Below, piece by piece: positions 1,457-51,200 of a stretch of DNA of 64,000 bases (the first letter of the stretch is position 1; each line of letters begins with the position of its first letter). The notes under the pieces are model-generated. The model was not told where the DNA came from. It did not search any database and saw only the letters and a program-made list of their open reading frames with translations. The position numbers and the translations under genes are program-made. Source of the stretch: Octopus vulgaris (Eukaryota); the NCBI GenBank assembly GCA_951406725.2, contig OX597823.1, positions 54,436,001 through 54,500,000 on the forward strand, read 5' to 3'.

Positions 1457-1558
1457 TCACAATATCATATCCTCATCACTGTCGTCATGATATGTTATGT
1501 TGTGTTCATCTTCCATGACCAGCAGACCTTCATCATCACCATCATCTATTTGAGGCAC
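1457..1558 (-). CDS. IGF2R: CI-MPR last coding exon
   Basis: VPQIDDGDDEGLLVMEDEHNITYHDDSDEDMIL*; acidic-cluster dileucine-type end; CAG acceptor at 1559-1561. Confidence 0.93.
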   Translation of the reverse strand: MPQIDDGDDEGLLVMEDEHNITYHDDSDEDMIL

Positions 1559-4500
1559 CTGCAAGAAAATAAATAAATAAATTAATAATTGTGGAAATGG
1601 GACAATAATTAGGTGGTACATGTAAAGCAATTCTGATATATTATAGTGTACAATAGACAAAACCATCTAACTAAAATAAGTCAGAGACCATGGTCCAGGA
1701 AAGAGATGGTAAATGCTTTTATTTTTCATTCCCTTCGAGAATTTATCCCTAATTAGTGGTTTGGACTTTAGCAGTTCTTTCTAGTGTAAAGGATTCCTAT
1801 GATGGAAACCTCTTAATGTGTTTAAATGTACACTGTATTTTATATATCTATATAATTTAGAGAAAAACCTCTATTAAGCAATTCAATAGTGAAATACATT
1901 ATTCACACCATATACAAAAAATTGAATATACTACAAAAAACATTATTTTAAAAATCAATAAAGTACATAATAAATAAATATTAAATAAAAAATATAAAAC
2001 TGTTCCAGAAAATACTCTTTATGATATAAATAAGGCCTCTAAATTAATCGTGATGAAATATAAGCTAGATAATAAAACTGAAACTTATGTACCTATGCAC
2101 CCTAGAATTACTTTAAAAGATCATAAGGATAACTTTTATTCTGACCCAAAATTTAGACTTATTTGTCCATGTAAATCAGATCTAGGTAAATTAAGTAAGA
2201 TCATTTTAGATAAATGTAGTGTCTGGAAGAATGGTTGGTTGGTCACTGTTTGTAGATCTTCAGTCATATTTTGGCTTAATAGGGCTAACCTTGAGCTAAG
2301 CAATAAGATCAGTTACAAGCATAAAGGAATAGATATCAGATAGCAGAGGAAGAATGTACAGGTGTTGACCCCCTCTCTCTGATAGAAGTCAGCAGTGTTC
2401 AGATCTGGAAATGATGTGTATCTAGGATTATATCCATTATACTGCACCCTAGTAGCCTTTGTTTAGGATAAGAAGGTACTTTTAAGGTAAGTTTCACTGG
2501 TATTCCTAGAAAGTTGATTAAATGAACTTAATTACCTTAAACTTTGGACTAGTACTAATGATACTTTAAAATGGTTTAATGATACTAACGATAAAAATAG
2601 ATATAAATTCATTCAAATAGATATAGATAATTATTATTCTTCTATTAATGAGATTGTACTCAATAAGGCCCTAATTTATGCAATGAATAAGGTAGGAATG
2701 ACTTATGATGAAGTTAATGTAGTTAAAACAGCTAGGAAATTGTTGATTAGATATAATAAATTGTGGGCTATGAAGGATACAAGGGACTATTTTGATATAC
2801 CTATGGGGGCAACTGATTTAGTAGGTATTTATTTATTGTTGGAACTTCAATTAGAAAAATTAAAGTTGGAGGGTGGTTTATATAGGGATGACCTTTTATT
2901 ACTAAGAATTGCACCAATAGAACACTAGAATTATATAAGAAACTATATAGCTTTTTAAAAGATCTGGATTAAGTATTACTATATATAATGAGAACTATAA
3001 TGTTAATTATTTAGATGCTAATTTTAATTTAATAACAGGTAAAACCCAACCATTCCATAAAATTAATGAAAACCTTAGATACATTAATACATTAATGTTA
3101 ATAGTAATCATCCACCCTCAATTAAGAAATCGTTGATAGATAATATAGGTAAAAGAATATTGTTGCTTTCTTCTAATTTTGAGATTTTCCAAAAACATAC
3201 ACCTTATTATAATGAAGCACTGCGGAAGGCGGGATATAATGATAATATTAAATTCGTTAATAATTGTAAATATAATTATAATATAAAAGATTATAATATA
3301 AATGATTCCTATATTTTTTATAATAATAAACCTAATGTTAAGAATTATAAGTTTTATTTAGGTAATTATGGTCTTAATAATAGGTATTATGATAATACAA
3401 AACATGTATATTATAATAGACTAAAAAAATAAGATTAGATTTAATTCGTTTAATGATAATAATAAATTTAATAATATAAAGAATAAATATAATAATATAA
3501 ATAATAACAAAATTTGGTTAATTATTCCTTATGGGGCTCAAGTTAAAACAAACATTAAAGAGATTTTAAATTTAATTGAAGTATTCATTAGAGATAATAA
3601 CAAATATAACATTTTTTCTAGTAATAATTTTGGAGTTGGTTATACTACTAATAATGTTGGTAACATTATTTATACTACTAATAATGTTGGTAACATTATT
3701 TCTTCTTTTAATAAATTTAAGCTGAATAAGTTTTACAAAAACAAATCAAATAATTATTCCAATAATAATAATAATAAAGACCAGAAATATAAATAAATGT
3801 ACATGTAGAGATAAGTCTACATGTAAATTTAATAATAAATGTAATTTGGATGATGTAGTTTATAAATGTGTAGTGACTTTGATTGATGATAATAATAGGA
3901 ATGGTTATAATTTAAACACGATTTGCATAGGGCTGACTGCTAATAAAATAAAATTAAAGGTGGCTCAACACATGAATTCTTTTAAGAATAGAAAATTAAT
4001 TAATTCTACTGGCCTTAGTAAATATATATGGGAACTAAAATCTAAACGTATTAAGTACAATTTAAATTGGGAGATAGTTTGTAAGGCAAAATCTTATCAA
4101 ATAGGTAGTAATTTTTGTTTGTTTATGTACTAATGAATTTAAGGAAATCTTATTAGGTAATAATAAAAAATTAATTCTCTAGATGAGTAAAAAATTAAAT
4201 GTAGACATAAGTTAAATTACTTATATAATAAGTTTAGCTAATTTGTGTGTGTGTGTGTGTGTGTATATCTATATATATATATATATATATATACATATAT
4301 ATAAACCCTATTTTATCTTACTAATTGTTGTAGTTATAATTTGTAGCAGTATAATGTGTAGAAATTAGCATGAGATTATATAGTGTATATACATAATTAG
4401 AATAATTACATAATAAATACATAAATTAATAAATATAGATTAAGTTATAGTAATTTAACATAATTTATGTATAGTATGTATTTTAGTTTTAAATTATATA

Positions 4501-7500
4501 GACTTTAAAATTTTCCAGTAAATGGTATATTACAGTTGTTTTCTTATTCTCACTGCTAAAATTCATTTTGTCATTTTCACAACTAAAATGCATATTTCTA
4601 TCTATTTATTCTATAATTTTTATTTACACCAGATTTTCACGTGATAAATTTCTTATAAACGCTAAGTTCTATGTTTTATGTTTAAAATTTTAGTTAACAG
4701 AATTTCTTCGATAAGATAAGTTATGATTTTATTTTAAGAAATAGTTAAATTTTATTCAATTATTTATTGTTAAAACATGTATTAAGTTAAGATACGTACA
4801 TTTATTTTATTATTCTTATTATTTTAGACCTGATGAGTGACTATATTTTTAAGCAGAATTAATTTTAAATCGATTTTATTATTATCGATTTGAAGATATA
4901 GCCATAAACGCACGTAGTCCATTTACTATTTATTTATTGTTTATGTACTTTATTGATTTTTAGAATAATGTTTTTTATAGTATATTTAATTTTTTTCTCT
5001 ATGGTGTGAATAACGTCTTTCACTATTAAATTGCTTAATAGAGGTTTTTTCTCTAAATTATATACAAATATTATATATTGTGAAATTTGATTTTAGAATT
5101 GCTAAATTGAATTTTTCCTTGTAAGTTTGGAATTATATTCTCTACTATTATTATTATAATTTTATATTTATAACTAATGTTTATCATTGTATTTAACTCT
5201 CAATTTCGTTAGTTATGGAACTTAGAGGTAAATTAGAATTGCTAGTTTGGAATTCATCTTTGATGGATATTCCTATACCATCTAGAAAAGAATATATTTT
5301 GAAACTTAATAATAATATTAAAGATTTTATTAATAGGATTAAATGGAAAGCCTACTATAATAATTGTAACATATCTAATATTAACGATGTAGAGAATAAT
5401 AATTATATCAATTCAAAATTTAAATCTAGAAAGGAACCCCCTTATAATAGGGAAATACAGGTTTTAGAGGATAATATTGGGAAGGTGGTGAAAAATATTA
5501 AATTTCATAAATACCCAAATAGACATAATGAATATTTAAGAAATCTAGCTATTAGAATAAGAGAAATGTGAAATATGGAAGGAATTATAGTACAATCAGA
5601 TAAAACTAGGAACCAGTATAAAGTAGACGTTAAATTATATGATAAACTTTTAGAGAAAGAAATAAAGAAAAAAGATAAAATATATAATAAATAATACTTA
5701 CATTAATGTATCGTGCTTTAACTGTTCGATTTCTGGTGAAGATATTTTTTATATTTTCCTTCATAATTTGCCTGATTATATATAAAAAAAATCAAAGTTG
5801 TAGAATTAAATCAGAAATGTAGGAAATGTATCAGACACTAAGAAAATTACATTTATAATATACATATTATACATATACATATTATACATACACATACAAA
5901 TCACCTGTGCATGTACCACGTATAAATCACTTGTGCTGGTGCCACATAAAAGGCACCCATGCTGGCGGCATAAAAAGCACACAGTACACTCTGTAAAGAG
6001 GCTAGTGTTAGGAAGATGTATCCAGCCATAAAAGCCATGCCAAAACAGACAATTGTTGCAGCTTGCCTGCTCCTGTCAAACTATTCAACCCATGCCAGCA
6101 TGGAAAACGAACATTAAGTAGTGATGATACATCCATCTACTGTGTGGTTTCCTGTTAACCAGCTGGAAGGATTCATAAGACACAAGAGACTGAGACAACA
6201 TTGCATGGATTCAGTGACATAGTTACTAAAAAAATAAAATATGGAGCAGGCTTTCTCACAACTGCCTTGCAAGTTCATAGCAATCACTTCAATGTATTGG
6301 CAAAAATAAACCCTGCTAAAAAAAAAAAGAAAAAAAAACCCACTGAAATATACACTATATGATAGCTGTTGACATATATTTCTTTATTAGCCACACAGGA
6401 CTTCACACAGACAGGACAAATTACAAGTTAGAGCTTTTTATGGGGGAAGAAAGAAAAAAAAATAGGGGGGGGGGGACACAGGTTTTCGATCAAAAGGGAT
6501 CGTAAAAGGAAAGAAAAGAAAAAAATGATCAATAGGGATCGTATATCACAGAAATGTCATGATATAAAGTGTAAAGGGGGAAACAGATGAGATTTATCCG
6601 TGGAAAGAAAAGCCTACGGAAAAGACCACGGTAACCTCGGTCAATAATGTTAACACATTTATTTGCAAGTAAGTAACTCTCTATTTTAGCTGTTGACATA
6701 TTAAAAGGCACCAGTGACATATAAAAGACATCCAGTACACTCTGGAGTGGTTGGCATTAGGAAGGACATCAAGCCATAGAAAACAAGCCAAAACTGACTG
6801 GAGCTTGGTGCAACACTGGCTTACCAGCTCCAGTTAGTTTTCTTAGTTGTCACCCAACTTTCGATATGGAGAGTTCAGCAGTCAAAGATTATCATAGAAA
6901 TGAGTACGTGTTTGAATTTGGCCAAAAGGAAAGAGAAAAACCACATGCACTTCAACGAGTGGAAAATGGGTGTACAATAACAGTAACAACAATAACTTTT
7001 TAAAACAGAAATAAGTTTTAAAAAAAAAAGAAGAAATAAACATGAAAGAAATGAAATGAGAGCTTACTTTTGTTCTGGTTTCATAAGTATTTTCAGTAAG
7101 ACAGCAATAATAATGATACTGAAGGTAACACTGGTAACAATAATTAATATGTGATAATTGCTTGATGCCACAGAAACTTGCTTTTTGGGTGACTGGTCAG
7201 AACTGAAATGTAAAAGTAAAGTTGTTATAATATATATGTCTGAACACATTTATGTCTGTGTGGATGTTAGCATGGAAAGGTTACCCCCCACCCCCACACA
7301 CACAAGAAGAAACCCAAATGATTTTACATATATATCTACACACACACACACACAAATGTAGAGGAATTATGGATTCTAAAAAATTTACCTAAAAAACAGA
7401 GACTCAGATAATAACATTTCTGAGAATATTTCTCGATTCAGAGTATAGAATTATTTCCCTTACGACTTTGTACAAAAGTCTCTGACCAAATTATTTTCTA

Positions 7501-45200: not shown

Positions 45201-48200
45201 CACACATAAGCTAAAACTAGCAGCCAAATCTCCCTTAAATTACATTGTTTTGTAAAGGCAAAACAGAAGAGACAATGTAGTCCTAGCTACGCAATGACCA
45301 ACAGACGGATGACATGATGGGTATGACTAGAATGTCTATTTTTTATTTAAAAATTTGGCTGTCTATTCGAAATAGAAGTTAAATGACCTTCAAATCACAT
45401 CTTACCATCATAGAAAAGAAAATAATTCAAAATATATTGAATGTTGTTGTTTCTGATATAAAAAAAATGACAGGCTGATTACAGCTAAAATACCTGAATC
45501 AAAGGTCTGCTCAATCAAAACTGACCTGGAGCAAATTAACAAGAGAGCAATTACATGATTGCTCAGCTTGGTAGAAATAGCAGCTAAATCTCCCTTAAAT
45601 CATACCGCATTGTCTTAATAAAAAAGAAAAAGATAAAGCATAATGTAAAACTTAGATGTTAGGAAAAAAATGGGACCATAATGGCCAGAACATCATGGAT
45701 CATAATAAGTGTGTGTAATGCAAGGTTGCAATTAAACAACAACCAACATAAAAGAAAACCAGCAAAAAAAAAAAAATGAAAGTCCCTAAAGACACTTACC
45801 ACAGCAGATAAATCACACTGAAATGTGATGTAAGTTGAAGAAGTCTTCCCTTCTCCACAAGGTTCTCCATTCTTATACACCAACCGTGGGAAATTACCAA
45901 AAAATTCAAGAGGATTGGAACCAAGTTCTCCAATATTGTGATATCTGTAAGAATAGGAAGACAAAAAAAATTTATTTAGTAATTCACTAAGAAAAAATAA
46001 ATTAATTCTTATGTAATTCAATTGCACTGGATATCATCATCATAATCATCATTTAACATCCATTGTCTATGCTGGCATGGATTGGACAGTGTGACCAGAG
46101 CTGGCAAGTTGTGGAACTGCACTAGACTCTGATATGATTTGACATGATTTCTACAGCTGGATCACCTTTCTAATGCCAACCACTTTACAGAGTATGATGA
46201 ATGCTTTTATGTGATGCTACACAGTTGCTGTTATGTGATACCGTATGGGTGCCTTCATGTTGTTGTTGTTTGTTCCTTCTCGAGCCATGCCTGGCTCATA
46301 GGGCCAGTTTCCTGGTTTCCTTGGCGTATATGTTCCCCACCTGGATGGGACGCCAGTCCGTCGCAGGTGAGCTGCAAGATGCAGGAGTAAAGAGTGAGAG
46401 AAAGTTGTGGCGAATGTGTCGGCAGAAGTTCGCCATTACCTTCTGCCGGAGCCGCGTGGAGCTTAGGTGTTTCGCTCATAAACACACACATCGCCCAGTC
46501 TGAGATTCAAACCTGCGATCCCTCGACCGTGAGTTCGCTGCTCTAACCACTAAGCCATGTGCCTTCATGTGTCACCACATGAGTGCTTTTACATGACACA
46601 CAACTGCACGGGCATTTTTACATGGTACTTCCCCAAGTGCTTTACATCACCAGAGGATCAGTTCGAACACTTTTGCTGCTGAGTACGGATCTCTCTAGGA
46701 ATATAATTTTTTGAACTTATATTTTATCTTCAGAGATCAAACACTTGAAAAACATTATAGAATTGCATAGTTTTAAAAAACGCTTTTATTCTTTTTCCTT
46801 TTTAAAGAAAATGAAATGTCAAACTCATAATCTAAAGTAGTAGTTCCCAAACTTTTCCAGGCTGCTGCCCCTTGGTTCCCAGGTTACATTCCAAGCACAC
46901 ACCCCGACTCACTATCACAAACATAGAGCAAATTCAAAACAACTGTATTTCAGAAATAAAATTTAACCGAATTAACTCATTTTGGCAGTGGGGGTTATAT
47001 CCATTGCCTCCTTTTAGCCACCCCATTATTGCCACACTTTTCTTCAATGCCCCTCACCCATCTTTCCATTACCCTCAAGGGGGCAGTACCACCCACTTTG
47101 GGAACCACTGATGTAAAGAGTATGAAAAAATAGTACAGAACACGTTTTCCAATGTTGTAATGAATCTGACCTCAACTCCCACCCAGGAGGTTTCTACAGG
47201 ACAACCTGCTGAGAGCCATGGAAGACAACTGGAGGTTTCTACGGGACAACCTGCTGAGAGCCACTGATCAGATCTGTGGATGGTGCAAAGTCTCCTCTCG
47301 ACCCAAGGTAATGTGGTGGTGGGACAATATTGTTGACAGGGCTATTAGACAAAAGAAACAGGCTTGGAAGGACTGGAAGAATGGTGGTAGCAGGGAAGTG
47401 TATCAGACTGCCAGAAGGGAAGCTAGGAGGCAGGTGTATTTAGCCAGAGGGGAAGCAGATAAGAAAAAATTTGCCAATGTTCTGTGCCGTGAGGACCAAA
47501 GACTTGAGGTTTTCGTGTTGCAAGGCAGTGTGTGAGAGAGAATTGAGATGTGGTAGGAGAGAAATGTGTTCGCATGGATGATGGTTCACTTGCGCTAAAT
47601 GAGGATACAAAGAGAGAGGTTTGGAGATGCCACAATGAAAGGTTGCTGAATAAAGAAAATGAATGGGATAAAGAGAGTCTGCCGAATGTCGACCCAACAG
47701 AGGGACCAGCTATCCAAGTTGACAGTTCCTTGGTAGTTAAGGCAATTAGAAGCATGAAGACAGGGAAAGCCCCAGGCCCATCAGGAATTACTGCAGAGAT
47801 GCTCAAAATATCTGGCAGTGTTGGCTATAGCCTAGTCACCTGTATAGTTAACCAGGTGATACATGAAGGAGTCATACCCAATGACTGGTGTAGCAGCACC
47901 ATAGTCCACCAAGGTTCAGTCTTCAGCCCCCTCCTATTTCTCATAGTCCTCCAGGCAATAACAGAGCAATGCAAGACAGGATGCCCCTGGGAGCTCCTCT
48001 ATGCTGATGACCTTGCTCTAATTGCTGAGTCATTATCAGAACTAGAGGAGAAGTTTCAGGCGTGGAAGCAAGGATTAGAATCGAATGGCCTTAGAGTGAA
48101 CCTAGCTAAAACAATAGTCCTAAGTAGGAAGGCAGACAAACCACAAATCCCTTCAAGTAGATGGCCCTGCTCGATCTTTAGAAAAGGCGTAGGTAGAAAC

Positions 48201-51200
48201 TCTATAAGATGTGCCCAGTGTAAGCTATGGACACATAAGAGGTGCAGCAATATCAAAGGAAGGTTAACTGGGAAGATAGTTTTTGTATGTGGCAGATGCT
48301 CGGGAGCAATAAATAACAATGAAAATATGCAGAGAACAACTTCCGCCACATTCCAGGGAGAAAAACTAGAAGTAGTTGATAGCTTCCGTTACCTAGATGA
48401 CCAAGTCAGTAGCCGGAGAGGGTGCACTGGAAGTGTAGCTGCTAGAATAAGAATAGCCTGGGCAAAGTTCAGAGAGCTCTTACCTCTGCTGGTGACAAAG
48501 GGCCTCTCGCTCAGAGTAAAAGGTAGACTGTATGATGCATGTGTACGAACAGCTATGCTACATGGCAGTGAAACATGGGCCGTGACTGCTGAGGATGTGT
48601 AAGTTTGCAAGGAAAGAAGCCAGTATGCTCCACTGGATGTGTAATGTCAGTGTGCATACTTGATAGTGTTAGTGCCTTGAGAGAAAAGTTAGACCTAAGA
48701 AGCATCAGATGTGGTGTGCAAGAGAGACGACTGTGCTGGTATGGTCATGTGGTGAGAAGGGATGAGAATAACTCTGTGGAAGAGGTAGACCCAGGAAGAC
48801 CTGGGATGAGATGGTGAAGCATGACCCTTGAACATTAGGCTTCACTGAGGCAATGACTAGCGACCGAGACCTTTGGAAATATGGTGTGCTTGAGAAGACC
48901 TGGCAGGCCAAGTGAGACCACAACCTGTAGCCTATGCCTGTGGTGTAACCAGTCCACTTAGGCATACCTTTCCATCATTGGACACTAAACTCTGCTTGTG
49001 AAGACCTGTTGAGGCAAGTGAAATCGAAATCGAATTCGATGACAGCACCACATGACTGGCATCTGTGCTAGTGGAGCACTAAGAGCACCATCCGAGCATG
49101 ATCGTTGCCAGGGCCACTGACTGGCCCCCGTGCCAGTGGCACGTAAAAAGCACTATTCGAGTGTGATCGTTACCAGTATCACCTTACTGGCACATGAAAA
49201 ACAACATTCGAGCGAGGTTATTGCCAGTGCTGCTGGACTGGCTCCTGTGCAGGTGCCACGTAAAAAACACCATTTGAACATGGCTGTTGCCAGTACCGCC
49301 TGACTGGCCCTCGTACCAGTGGCACATAAAAGTACCCACCACACTCTCGGAGTGGTTGGCATTAGGAAGGGCATCCAGTTGAAGAAACTCTGCCAGATCA
49401 GATTGGAGCCTGGTGCAGACATCTGGCTTGCTAGTCCTCAGTCAAACTGTCCAACCCATGCCAGCATGGAAAGCAGACGTTAAACGATGATGAGGATGAT
49501 GATGAATAAGGGTGTCAAATTTTGGTACAAGGCCAGCAGTTTTGGGAGGGAGGGTAAGTCGATTACACCAACTCCAGTGTTCAACTGGTGCTTATTCTAT
49601 TGACCTGAAAGGATGAAAGGAAAAGTTAACCTCAGTGGAATCTGAATGCCACTAAGCATTTTGTCCAGCACGCTAACAATTCTGGCAGCTTGCTGCTCTT
49701 ATGATGATGATGCTGATGATAATCATTTCTACTAAAGGAACAAGGCCTACAATTTTGGGGGAGGGGAGTAGTTGATTATATTGACCCCCGTGTTTCACTG
49801 GTACTTAATTTATTGACTCCGAAAGGATGAAAGACAAAATCGACCTTGGCAGAATTTGAACTCAGAACATGAAGACAGACAAAATGTTGCTAAGCATTTT
49901 GCCCAGCATACTAACAATTCTGCCAGCTCACTGCCTTTATTATAATAATAATAACTACAACAACAATGGTGGTTCTCATGGTTTCTGATATTAAATGATT
50001 GGAAGTGTTATCATGTACATGTTTTGTCTTGGTGTAAAAGATGGGCTACAGCAAATATTCTGATCAATACCCAAGAGATTTGTTTGACCATAACCAGTTG
50101 AGCATGTCCCTTAGTGGCTGATGATATGTGCATCTCTGATCCCAAGAAGTAGTGGGAGAGTACTGTATAGCCATGTATTGAGAGGAATTCTTTGGGGTTT
50201 GAATAATTCACCTTTGGAAACGGGTGTTTTGTTCATCATACTTATGCAAACTTTATTCAGGGACCTTCTGAGTGGAATGGGCTACCCATCCCGAAGAAAA
50301 TTCTAATTGGGCTCAACCTACAAGGTCATGTACTGTTTATCTTGATATGAGATCACCTTACTATGCACTGATGGTTGTGATGCATGTGCATGGTGTACCC
50401 TTTGTCTATTTGTACCCCAGTGTCACTTTGATGACATGAATTGTTCCTTCACTCAATAATAATAACAATTGGTGCATTGGGAACTGTAAGCAAAGATATG
50501 GACAAATGGCTGAAGGAGATTGGAATAGAATGTCCTGTAGAGCTTCTACAGAAAGTTTGCCTCTTAGGGACAGGAAAGATTATCAGGAGGGTACTAAGCA
50601 ATTGTGGATACCTAAGTTTACAAGAAGTAACTTGCTACTCTCATAAATCCTGCCAGGAATAAGACCAAACCTGAGTCAAATCAAAAATAATACTAATAAT
50701 TATTTCTACTCTAGGTACAAGGCCTTCAAAAAATTTTTTTTTTGGGGGGGGGGGGTAGATGATTATATCAACCCCAGAGCATAAGTGGTACTTATCTCAT
50801 CAACCCTGAAAGGCTGAAGGTCTGAAAGATACTGGAACCAAGATTTGCATAAAAAGTGCAATCCTATATTCTGCAAGAATCCTAAGATTTGAGGAGCTGT
50901 ATTGTTACCAAACCTCATAATAACATTTCTGTCAATTAAATTAGCATGTAATAGCTTTTGAATAATGATGAGGATGATGATGACAAAATACTAGGCAGTG
51001 GCTCTAATGGCTTCTGATCTTAACTGATTGGAAGTGTTAACATGAACATATTTTGTCTTAATGGGTGTAAAAGACAGGCTATAACAAATATTTTGCTCAG
51101 TACCATTGATTTTCCTGTCAGTTGCTTGCCCTCAACCAGTTGAGCATGTTCCTTTGTGACTGACAACATGTGCATCTCTGATCAAGAGCAGGAGTAGTGA

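Follow-up and report, generated by a model that had tools for sequence, protein, structure and literature searches.

A circularly permuted, two-armed copy of a Hydra-clade Penelope-like element in the genome of Octopus vulgaris

A stretch of 64,000 nucleotides from Octopus vulgaris (GenBank assembly GCA_951406725.2, contig OX597823.1, positions 54,436,001 to 54,500,000 of the forward strand; hereafter the window) contains a dead, decayed copy of a Penelope-like element (PLE) of the Hydra clade, whose single open reading frame (ORF) is rotated so that the tail half comes first. The permutation is real. The insertion is two-armed and head-to-head: the short arm is inverted and the long one direct, and the latter measures one 3,681-nt unit plus about 14-18 nt. 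Our leading explanation, held tentatively and at somewhat less than even weight, is that the long arm is the product of one lap of reverse transcription around a circular, hammerhead-closed, full-length RNA of an autonomous PLE. The copy alone is not proof of a circular intermediate, but it is a real and well-defined structural oddity.

A blastn comparison of positions 1501-6200 with the window showed that the AT-rich retroelement spans about 1836-5680 and is present as a single copy; no more element sequence was found by this search in the 1.8 kb upstream or the 58 kb downstream. The pieces follow each other in the order ORF middle and C-terminus (1984-4235), non-coding spacer with a hammerhead-like motif, and ORF N-terminus (homology at 5233-5680). 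In tblastn comparisons (numbering of relative P0001), the downstream piece matched residues 1 to about 150, and the piece starting at 1981 matched from about residue 143 to the protein end, in all eight long relatives. Together they are colinear with full-length relatives over residues 1 to 754 of 759. A preliminary description of this DNA had given the order as middle and C-terminus, pseudo-long terminal repeat (pLTR), N-terminus. The order of the coding pieces agrees with the eight relatives; the spacer is present only once in direct orientation, and the name pLTR can be kept only in a positional sense. The only direct repeat, of 18 nt, lies inside the ORF, and the pLTR-ORF-pLTR layout of a typical PLE partial tandem is missing. 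Once later inserts are removed the unit is about 3.4 kb long, with 77% AT. No intact ORF is left: frameshifts and stops interrupt the coding sequence, which has also suffered a small deletion and received an insert.

The register of the two pieces was determined from the distance between one anchor codon in each, measured in the relatives that align over both anchors (47, among the 150 listed of 878 protein relatives). The spacing was 9 residues in 46 of the 47, as an offset of 3681 predicts, and 12 in the other one. At this offset positions 5663-5680 overlap in frame with positions 1982-1999, with 16 of 18 bases identical; the overlap is translated as K-K-K-D-K in the downstream copy and N-K-K-Y-K in the upstream copy, and the two mismatches are compatible with the age of the copy. 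The upstream overlap forms the 5′ end of the long arm. The downstream overlap forms its 3′ end, which falls about 450 nt into the ORF and is about 600 nt beyond the likely usual start site of reverse transcription discussed below. Not one of 59,884 16-mers from the rest of the window matched positions 1984-1999 at 14 of 16 bases or better. Therefore, the overlap is unlikely to be flanking DNA and the element runs to 5680, beyond the end at 5668 proposed in the preliminary description. The overlap suggested there, AAATAAA, corresponds to an offset of 3677 and is out of frame. Nonetheless, its central claim, a unit-length permutation with a small overlap, is borne out by the protein spacing and by the near identity of the 18-nt repeat. 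The competing A-rich registers at offsets 3688, 3690 and 3702 are weaker (score 10 versus 12) and were excluded by the protein spacing alone.

When A content is scored in 15- and 18-nt windows, both copies of the breakpoint tract come first in the unit. The upstream copy is tied for first place at 10, 12 and 20 nt and is weaker at 25-30 nt, falling outside the top eight at 25 nt. The location of both breakpoints in this tract supports the earlier suggestion of priming at an internal A-rich site. Hybrids of rA and dT are weak, and reverse transcriptases pause on A-tracts.

The blastn comparison showed that the upstream breakpoint adjoins an inverted arm, overlooked in the preliminary description, and not host DNA. 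The 151-nt segment at 1836-1986 is the reverse complement of 4921-5077, with 138 of 157 alignment columns identical (88%, E 1e-49). Substitutions amount to 6.5-8.7% (9 mismatches in 138 or 13 in 150 aligned bases), in addition to 6 gap columns. The inner end of this arm is fused to the long arm through a 5-nt stretch common to both (1982-1986, the first 5 nt of the upstream overlap) and corresponds to a point 5 nt after the predicted hammerhead cut. The outer end, at 1836-1849, is blurred by the TA-rich flank and can be drawn at 1837 as well; it corresponds to a point 148-161 nt after the predicted cut and 19-32 nt before a repeated GAATTGCT. The microhomology at the inner join is ordinary. 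The unit has 43 TAAAT sites, 24 of which offer an equally good 12-base match, and an extended microhomology was accordingly rejected as the cause of the join site. Since the join is not site-specific in this respect, it cannot explain why the two ends of the long arm coincide.

Both flanks consist of short, imperfect TA runs within an AT-rich context. The longest word common to them, TATATAAT, is a candidate 8-bp target duplication, with a left copy at 1849-1856 and a right copy at 5681-5688, the latter opening the TA-rich non-element flank immediately after element homology ends. Counting both strands, the window contains this word 15 times, so the duplication is suggestive only. At 1849 it also matches element positions 5057-5064 in reverse, and there it may be a copy of the target duplication, a priming microhomology or a plain part of the arm. 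A common SINE-like (short interspersed element-like) host repeat starts about 220 nt to the right of the element, at 5900-6130; the window contains about 20 diverged copies of it, at many places up to 61,600.

The spacer starts with a 3′ non-coding region (4236-4824) that includes a (TG)n(TA)n microsatellite at about 4244-4306. It is followed by a segment at 4825-4921 that is probably a decayed type I hammerhead: CTGATGA is found at 4830, stems I-III and the cut triplet are in place, and cleavage is predicted after 4916, but the second core reads TAAA (4905) instead of GAAA. A relaxed descriptor detects the motif and a strict one does not. Folding of the long stem II gave a z score of -1.76, with 9 of 200 shuffled sequences as good. 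A covariance model built from 37 relatives' hammerheads scored only the first half of the motif (E 0.051); this is a weak test, as the model kept 4 base pairs and the 37 had been chosen by a descriptor requiring GAAA. The Rfam search returned six weak matches, none of them a ribozyme. Stem II (4838-4903) is about 65 nt long, whereas the distance between cores in the relatives is 8-25 nt, in a search limited to 45 nt. The 5′ non-coding region (4922-5214) comes next, with (G)AATTGCT at 5029, 5096 and, further on, 5236. The usual start of reverse transcription in this family is likely to be near 5064-5077, before the repeated GAATTGCT, by analogy with the relatives described next. If the usual start is placed at the outer end of the inverted arm, the long arm, which reaches 450 nt into the ORF, has an off-site 3′ end.

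Loci of relatives were obtained by scanning metagenome contigs; the best 80 of 230 by ORF coverage, a choice biased toward whole ORFs, yielded 77 loci (L001-L077). The motif GAGCACT occurs in them 137 times in sense and 15 times in antisense orientation, at least once in 63 and at least twice in 48 of the 77. Typical positions are about 50-72 and 114-135 nt downstream of the hammerhead cut (for example, 3170 and 3234 in L013); the motif is usually present twice, about 60 nt apart, and often forms the 3′ side of a GCTC...GAGC hairpin. Among 18 element 3′ ends followed by non-element DNA, 11 lie 10-35 nt before GAGCACT, 4 lie further away and 3 have no such motif within 400 nt. These positions indicate two usual start sites before the ATG in the relatives, and they resemble the two tail-defining sites of an anole PLE (PMC11167929). 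GAGCACT looks like an RNA signal that may set the two start sites and the tail. A description of this motif or of a Hydra-clade start-site motif was not found in the open-access literature, a search that leaves subscription papers aside. Six published Hydra consensus sequences (File S7, PMC8557442) end, by eye, roughly 35-105 nt after the hammerhead cut; in contrast, the direct arm in O. vulgaris extends 450 nt into the ORF. Two of the loci, L047 and L048, the 5′ ends of which are contig starts, likewise have an off-site 3′ end within the ORF.

Inverted arms are present in two of these loci, L073 (255-300) and L003 (710-762). They adjoin (TA)n and begin near the second start site; their other ends, 49 and about 51 nt after the cut, do not quite reach the first start site, as if two polymerases had been primed 60 nt apart on one RNA. 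The 5′ ends of L012, L019 and L040 are located 26-29 nt before GAGCACT, a few nt beyond the usual position of 3′ ends. These patterns, recognized post hoc and in small numbers, suggest that reverse transcription may halt where another start or a bound protein lies. Two further groups of ends were seen. The 5′ ends at L003:765, L026:1426 and L027:2280 lie 37-43 nt before the cut, at the 5′ edge of the ribozyme, and may reflect a transcription start or a structure-dependent stop, while the 3′ ends at L042:2574 and L022:2762 fall inside the hammerhead itself, with TA-rich DNA after them.

As the long arm crosses the hammerhead-like motif and continues 600 nt into the next ORF, spanning two successive laps of the unit, a more-than-unit template, circular or tandem, is required. 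This part of the preliminary description stands. Its one-lap account holds for the unit length and the internal A-rich priming, but it did not capture the two-armed insertion, in which the inverted arm probably starts at the clade's usual site. In the mechanism we consider, the endonuclease would first cut both strands at a TA-rich site. The end of the top strand would then act as primer at the usual start (about 5064-5077) and be extended by about 150 nt, to the 3′ edge of the hammerhead. The end of the bottom strand would act as primer off-site, on the A-tract at 5680. From there synthesis would proceed through the 5′ leader, across the hammerhead (uncut or religated) and along all the remaining unit, and it would cease once the long complementary DNA (cDNA) had displaced no more than its own weak, A-rich start. 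Finally, the two cDNA ends would be joined through the 5-nt microhomology. The product lacks an intact ORF and is dead on arrival. A related scheme, twin priming with both primers at sites equivalent to 5680 and later loss of the left arm, was rejected; no reverse 5078-5680 sequence is found upstream, and the outer end of the arm fits the usual start.

The circular template is favored by the coincidence of the two ends of the long arm, which meet within 18 nt in a unit of 3,681 nt at a place that is not a natural start site. The overlap equals the A-tract, and stops near another start site are seen in relatives (L073, L003, L012, L019 and L040). A circle would account for the coincidence with one extra assumption, that synthesis stops on meeting its own start. 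Several points weigh against this explanation. The structure is represented by one copy only. On a single circle the long cDNA would meet the inverted arm after 600 nt, so that a second RNA or displacement of the arm has to be assumed. The A-tract could draw priming and stopping, each on its own, with no circle involved. In the anole element, hammerhead cleavage is not needed for insertion in vitro and no reads end at the cut (PMC11167929); in the octopus copy the hammerhead is decayed, and its identification is weak.

The lengths of related copies also count against a stop after one lap as the rule. A unit-spaced direct repeat is present in 43 of the 77 loci, in 39 of which one or both ends are contig ends. 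For seven selected copies with non-element DNA on both sides, the length minus the unit is -39, -20, +9, +59, +75, +82 and +787; L068, L070 and L073 have both ends as well but are 5′-truncated inside the ORF. Only 2 of the 10 both-ended relatives, L012 (+9) and L011 (-20), come within 20 nt of the unit length; both do so at natural start sites, and L012 is explained by a TA word common with its target. A full lap is exceeded by 59-1,200 nt in L013, L015, L026, L027, L029, L034, L043, L052 and L067, and a stop after one lap is therefore not the rule. Among the 10 both-ended relatives there was no second off-site one-lap copy. Four loci (L013, L015, L034 and L052) are permuted inside the ORF and cover one lap, but all of them stop at a contig end, with overlaps of 71-76 nt at 96-99% identity, a pattern typical of assembly that breaks off within a partial tandem.

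A linear template fits nearly as well as a circle and is a credible possibility, though short of probable. The same double priming would take place on a read-through RNA from a tandem master locus, with its 5′ end at or near the upstream cut and the internal hammerhead uncut. The inverted arm would be primed in the upstream repeat and run to the 5′ end of the RNA, while the long arm would stop at the same A-tract one unit upstream by pausing, cryptic poly(A) cleavage or chance. A single RNA then accounts for both arms, as in L1 twin priming (PMC2837659), and the predicted cut does lie 5 nt from the end of the arm. Loci of tandem or partial-tandem structure are the usual state in PLEs (PMC8557442), L067 being an example. 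Both ends of the long arm lie in the top A-tract for 15- and 18-nt windows, although the tract only ties for first place or drops in rank at the other lengths given above. An AATAAA is located 14 nt before the 3′ end, but this word is found 16 times, and 8% of the positions in the unit are 10-30 nt downstream of a copy of it. The main difficulty is that two independent events are needed at one tract: by our estimate, a stop within 20 nt of the unit point would be expected in about 1% of cases at random, and perhaps in 3-5% with pausing on the A-tract. In addition, this version places the two priming products about 590 nt apart.

An origin at the DNA level is unlikely. A unit fragment could have been cut from a tandem array, or from an opened DNA circle, at the same AT-rich site of successive units, leaving staggered ends, and captured with a short cDNA where the DNA was broken, or a longer array could have been trimmed by later deletions. 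The PLE endonuclease cuts AT-rich DNA on both strands, its own element included (PMC11167929); element sequence would be duplicated at the two ends if the cut were staggered, and the copy carries later indels. On the other hand, no further element sequence remains on either side in the window, deletions would not meet in register, and the candidate duplication of TATATAAT suggests one insertion event. An assembly artefact, in which the assembler would have followed a partial tandem through one lap and then attached an incorrect flank, is very improbable: there are precedents in the four permuted loci described above and in two circularly permuted Penelope copies of Adineta, ascribed to assembly or copy fusion (PMC3846280), but the former end at contig ends with long, nearly identical overlaps and the latter are on isolated, flankless contigs, whereas the octopus copy has non-element DNA on both sides in a window without N, 2 mismatches in 18 in its overlap and an arm 6.5-8.7% diverged.

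Several features of the copy have been described in other systems. The clade, the head-to-head arms, internal initiation and the idea of a circular template are already known. With the Hydra clade (PMC8557442; e.g., Hydra-1_Obim) the copy shares a single ORF with a C-terminal endonuclease, the RWK-like and DKT motifs, the CxCx5C linker, a probable (here decayed) type I hammerhead after the ORF and an apparently TA-rich target. It differs in its size of about 3.4 kb, when most families are below 3 kb, in its 77% AT, in the Asn-rich linker and in the very long stem II. An inverted, 5′-truncated arm like the one found here was noted for Penelope-13_HM (PMC8557442), and the head-to-head arrangement is common in PLEs (PMC8557442, PMC3846280). 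The head-to-head Penelope of Adineta vaga (PMC3846280) likewise has an inverted pLTR fused at its 5′ end, a short overlap and Asn-rich inserts; its target duplications are 8-10 bp long, and the candidate here is 8 bp. For Poseidon PAc of Anolis carolinensis, cleavage and extension of both target strands, initiation at internal positions and a predicted dimer were reported (PMC11167929). The internal start, the cut and extended target strands, the AT-rich targets and tandem RNA would be shared with the octopus copy, but in PAc reverse transcription begins at two fixed positions, some 111-118 nt into the ORF, unlike the off-site long arm, and a unit-length permuted product or a circular template is not described in the portion of that study available. 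The opposed cDNAs from two target strands, joined internally, would be shared with L1 twin or dual priming, in which the RNA is a linear monomer unable to yield a permuted unit (PMC2837659).

Circles have been demonstrated for non-LTR retrozymes (PMC7229834; for retrozymes see also bioRxiv 10.64898/2026.07.22.740005), which are marked by tandem copies and by a type I hammerhead, a probable and decayed feature of the octopus copy. These are, however, non-coding units of 170-400 nt (PMC7229834), whereas the copy belongs to an autonomous PLE, and for such PLEs the sources consulted show no circle. A circular template was proposed for PLEs in 2014 to explain more-than-unit copying (PMC4209133). 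In the open-access literature no host-flanked PLE copy of unit length with ends inside the ORF was found; older subscription papers on Drosophila Penelope may describe one. The copy touches on the question of how PLEs regenerate more-than-unit copies and what their hammerheads do. Copies started at the usual sites cannot separate the models because the start-site sequence or a bound protein recurs in every unit. Off-site priming makes the separation possible: with a circle, unit-length copies should accumulate wherever in the unit priming began, and a linear tandem makes no such prediction. If the circular explanation is true and such copies recur at unrelated positions, the genome sequence alone would show that PLEs replicate via hammerhead-closed circles, like retrozymes and viroids. 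The copy itself is a dead element with no sign of a host function.

Assignment to the Hydra clade is supported at the protein level by the single ORF with a C-terminal endonuclease and by conserved motifs. The N-terminal piece (5215-5680, with an in-frame stop at 5569-5571) contains an RWK-like motif, NRIKWKA, and DKG is changed to DKT, seen as QSDKTRN; the relatives show RxRWxA and DKT. The remaining piece (1984-4235), delimited with P0001 and seven other relatives, encodes the reverse transcriptase, the thumb, an Asn-rich linker, the CxCx5C motif (about 3798-3824; CTCRDKSTC, a clean match) and a region whose name, GIY-YIG-type endonuclease, is given from position and clade. The clade is described as having a CxxC after the endonuclease and no CCHH motif (PMC8557442); the downstream CxxC is decayed in this copy (FCLFMY followed by a stop). 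An exhaustive protein search with the reverse transcriptase piece gave the 878 relatives at E 0.001 or better, and P0010, a close one among them, carries an annotation from the octopod Argonauta hians. When the N-terminal piece (among longer proteins) and the first upstream piece (among proteins of similar length) were used in word-indexed protein searches, no relatives were returned. A search of sequencing runs listed 24, of which 20 contained part of the sequence (largest share 0.36), with no RNA run among those listed as containing it. A Pfam search with seven pieces found no PLE family and no other relevant family, and 68 pattern matches in viral contigs included no relative.

The reverse transcriptase region is interrupted by a later insert of 280 nt with 39% GC (2221-2500), located in the gap between P0001 residues 219 and 234 and lacking a second copy in the window. 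It is GC-richer, is bordered by TA on both sides and has CACTG near its right end, and it is possibly a decayed derivative of a DNA transposon. The Asn-rich expansion between the thumb and the endonuclease (3256-3793; 26-29% Asn) includes an exact 30-nt tandem duplication (3640-3699) and recalls the Asn-rich inserts of the Adineta Penelope elements (PMC3846280). Among the relatives, the ENA protein P0003, from a 501-kb contig, consists of a Hydra-type reverse transcriptase fragment tandemly repeated about four times in one frame. Elsewhere in the window, a 351-codon stop-free frame on the forward strand (47547-48599) appears by eye to be part of a reverse transcriptase ORF of the long interspersed element (LINE) type.

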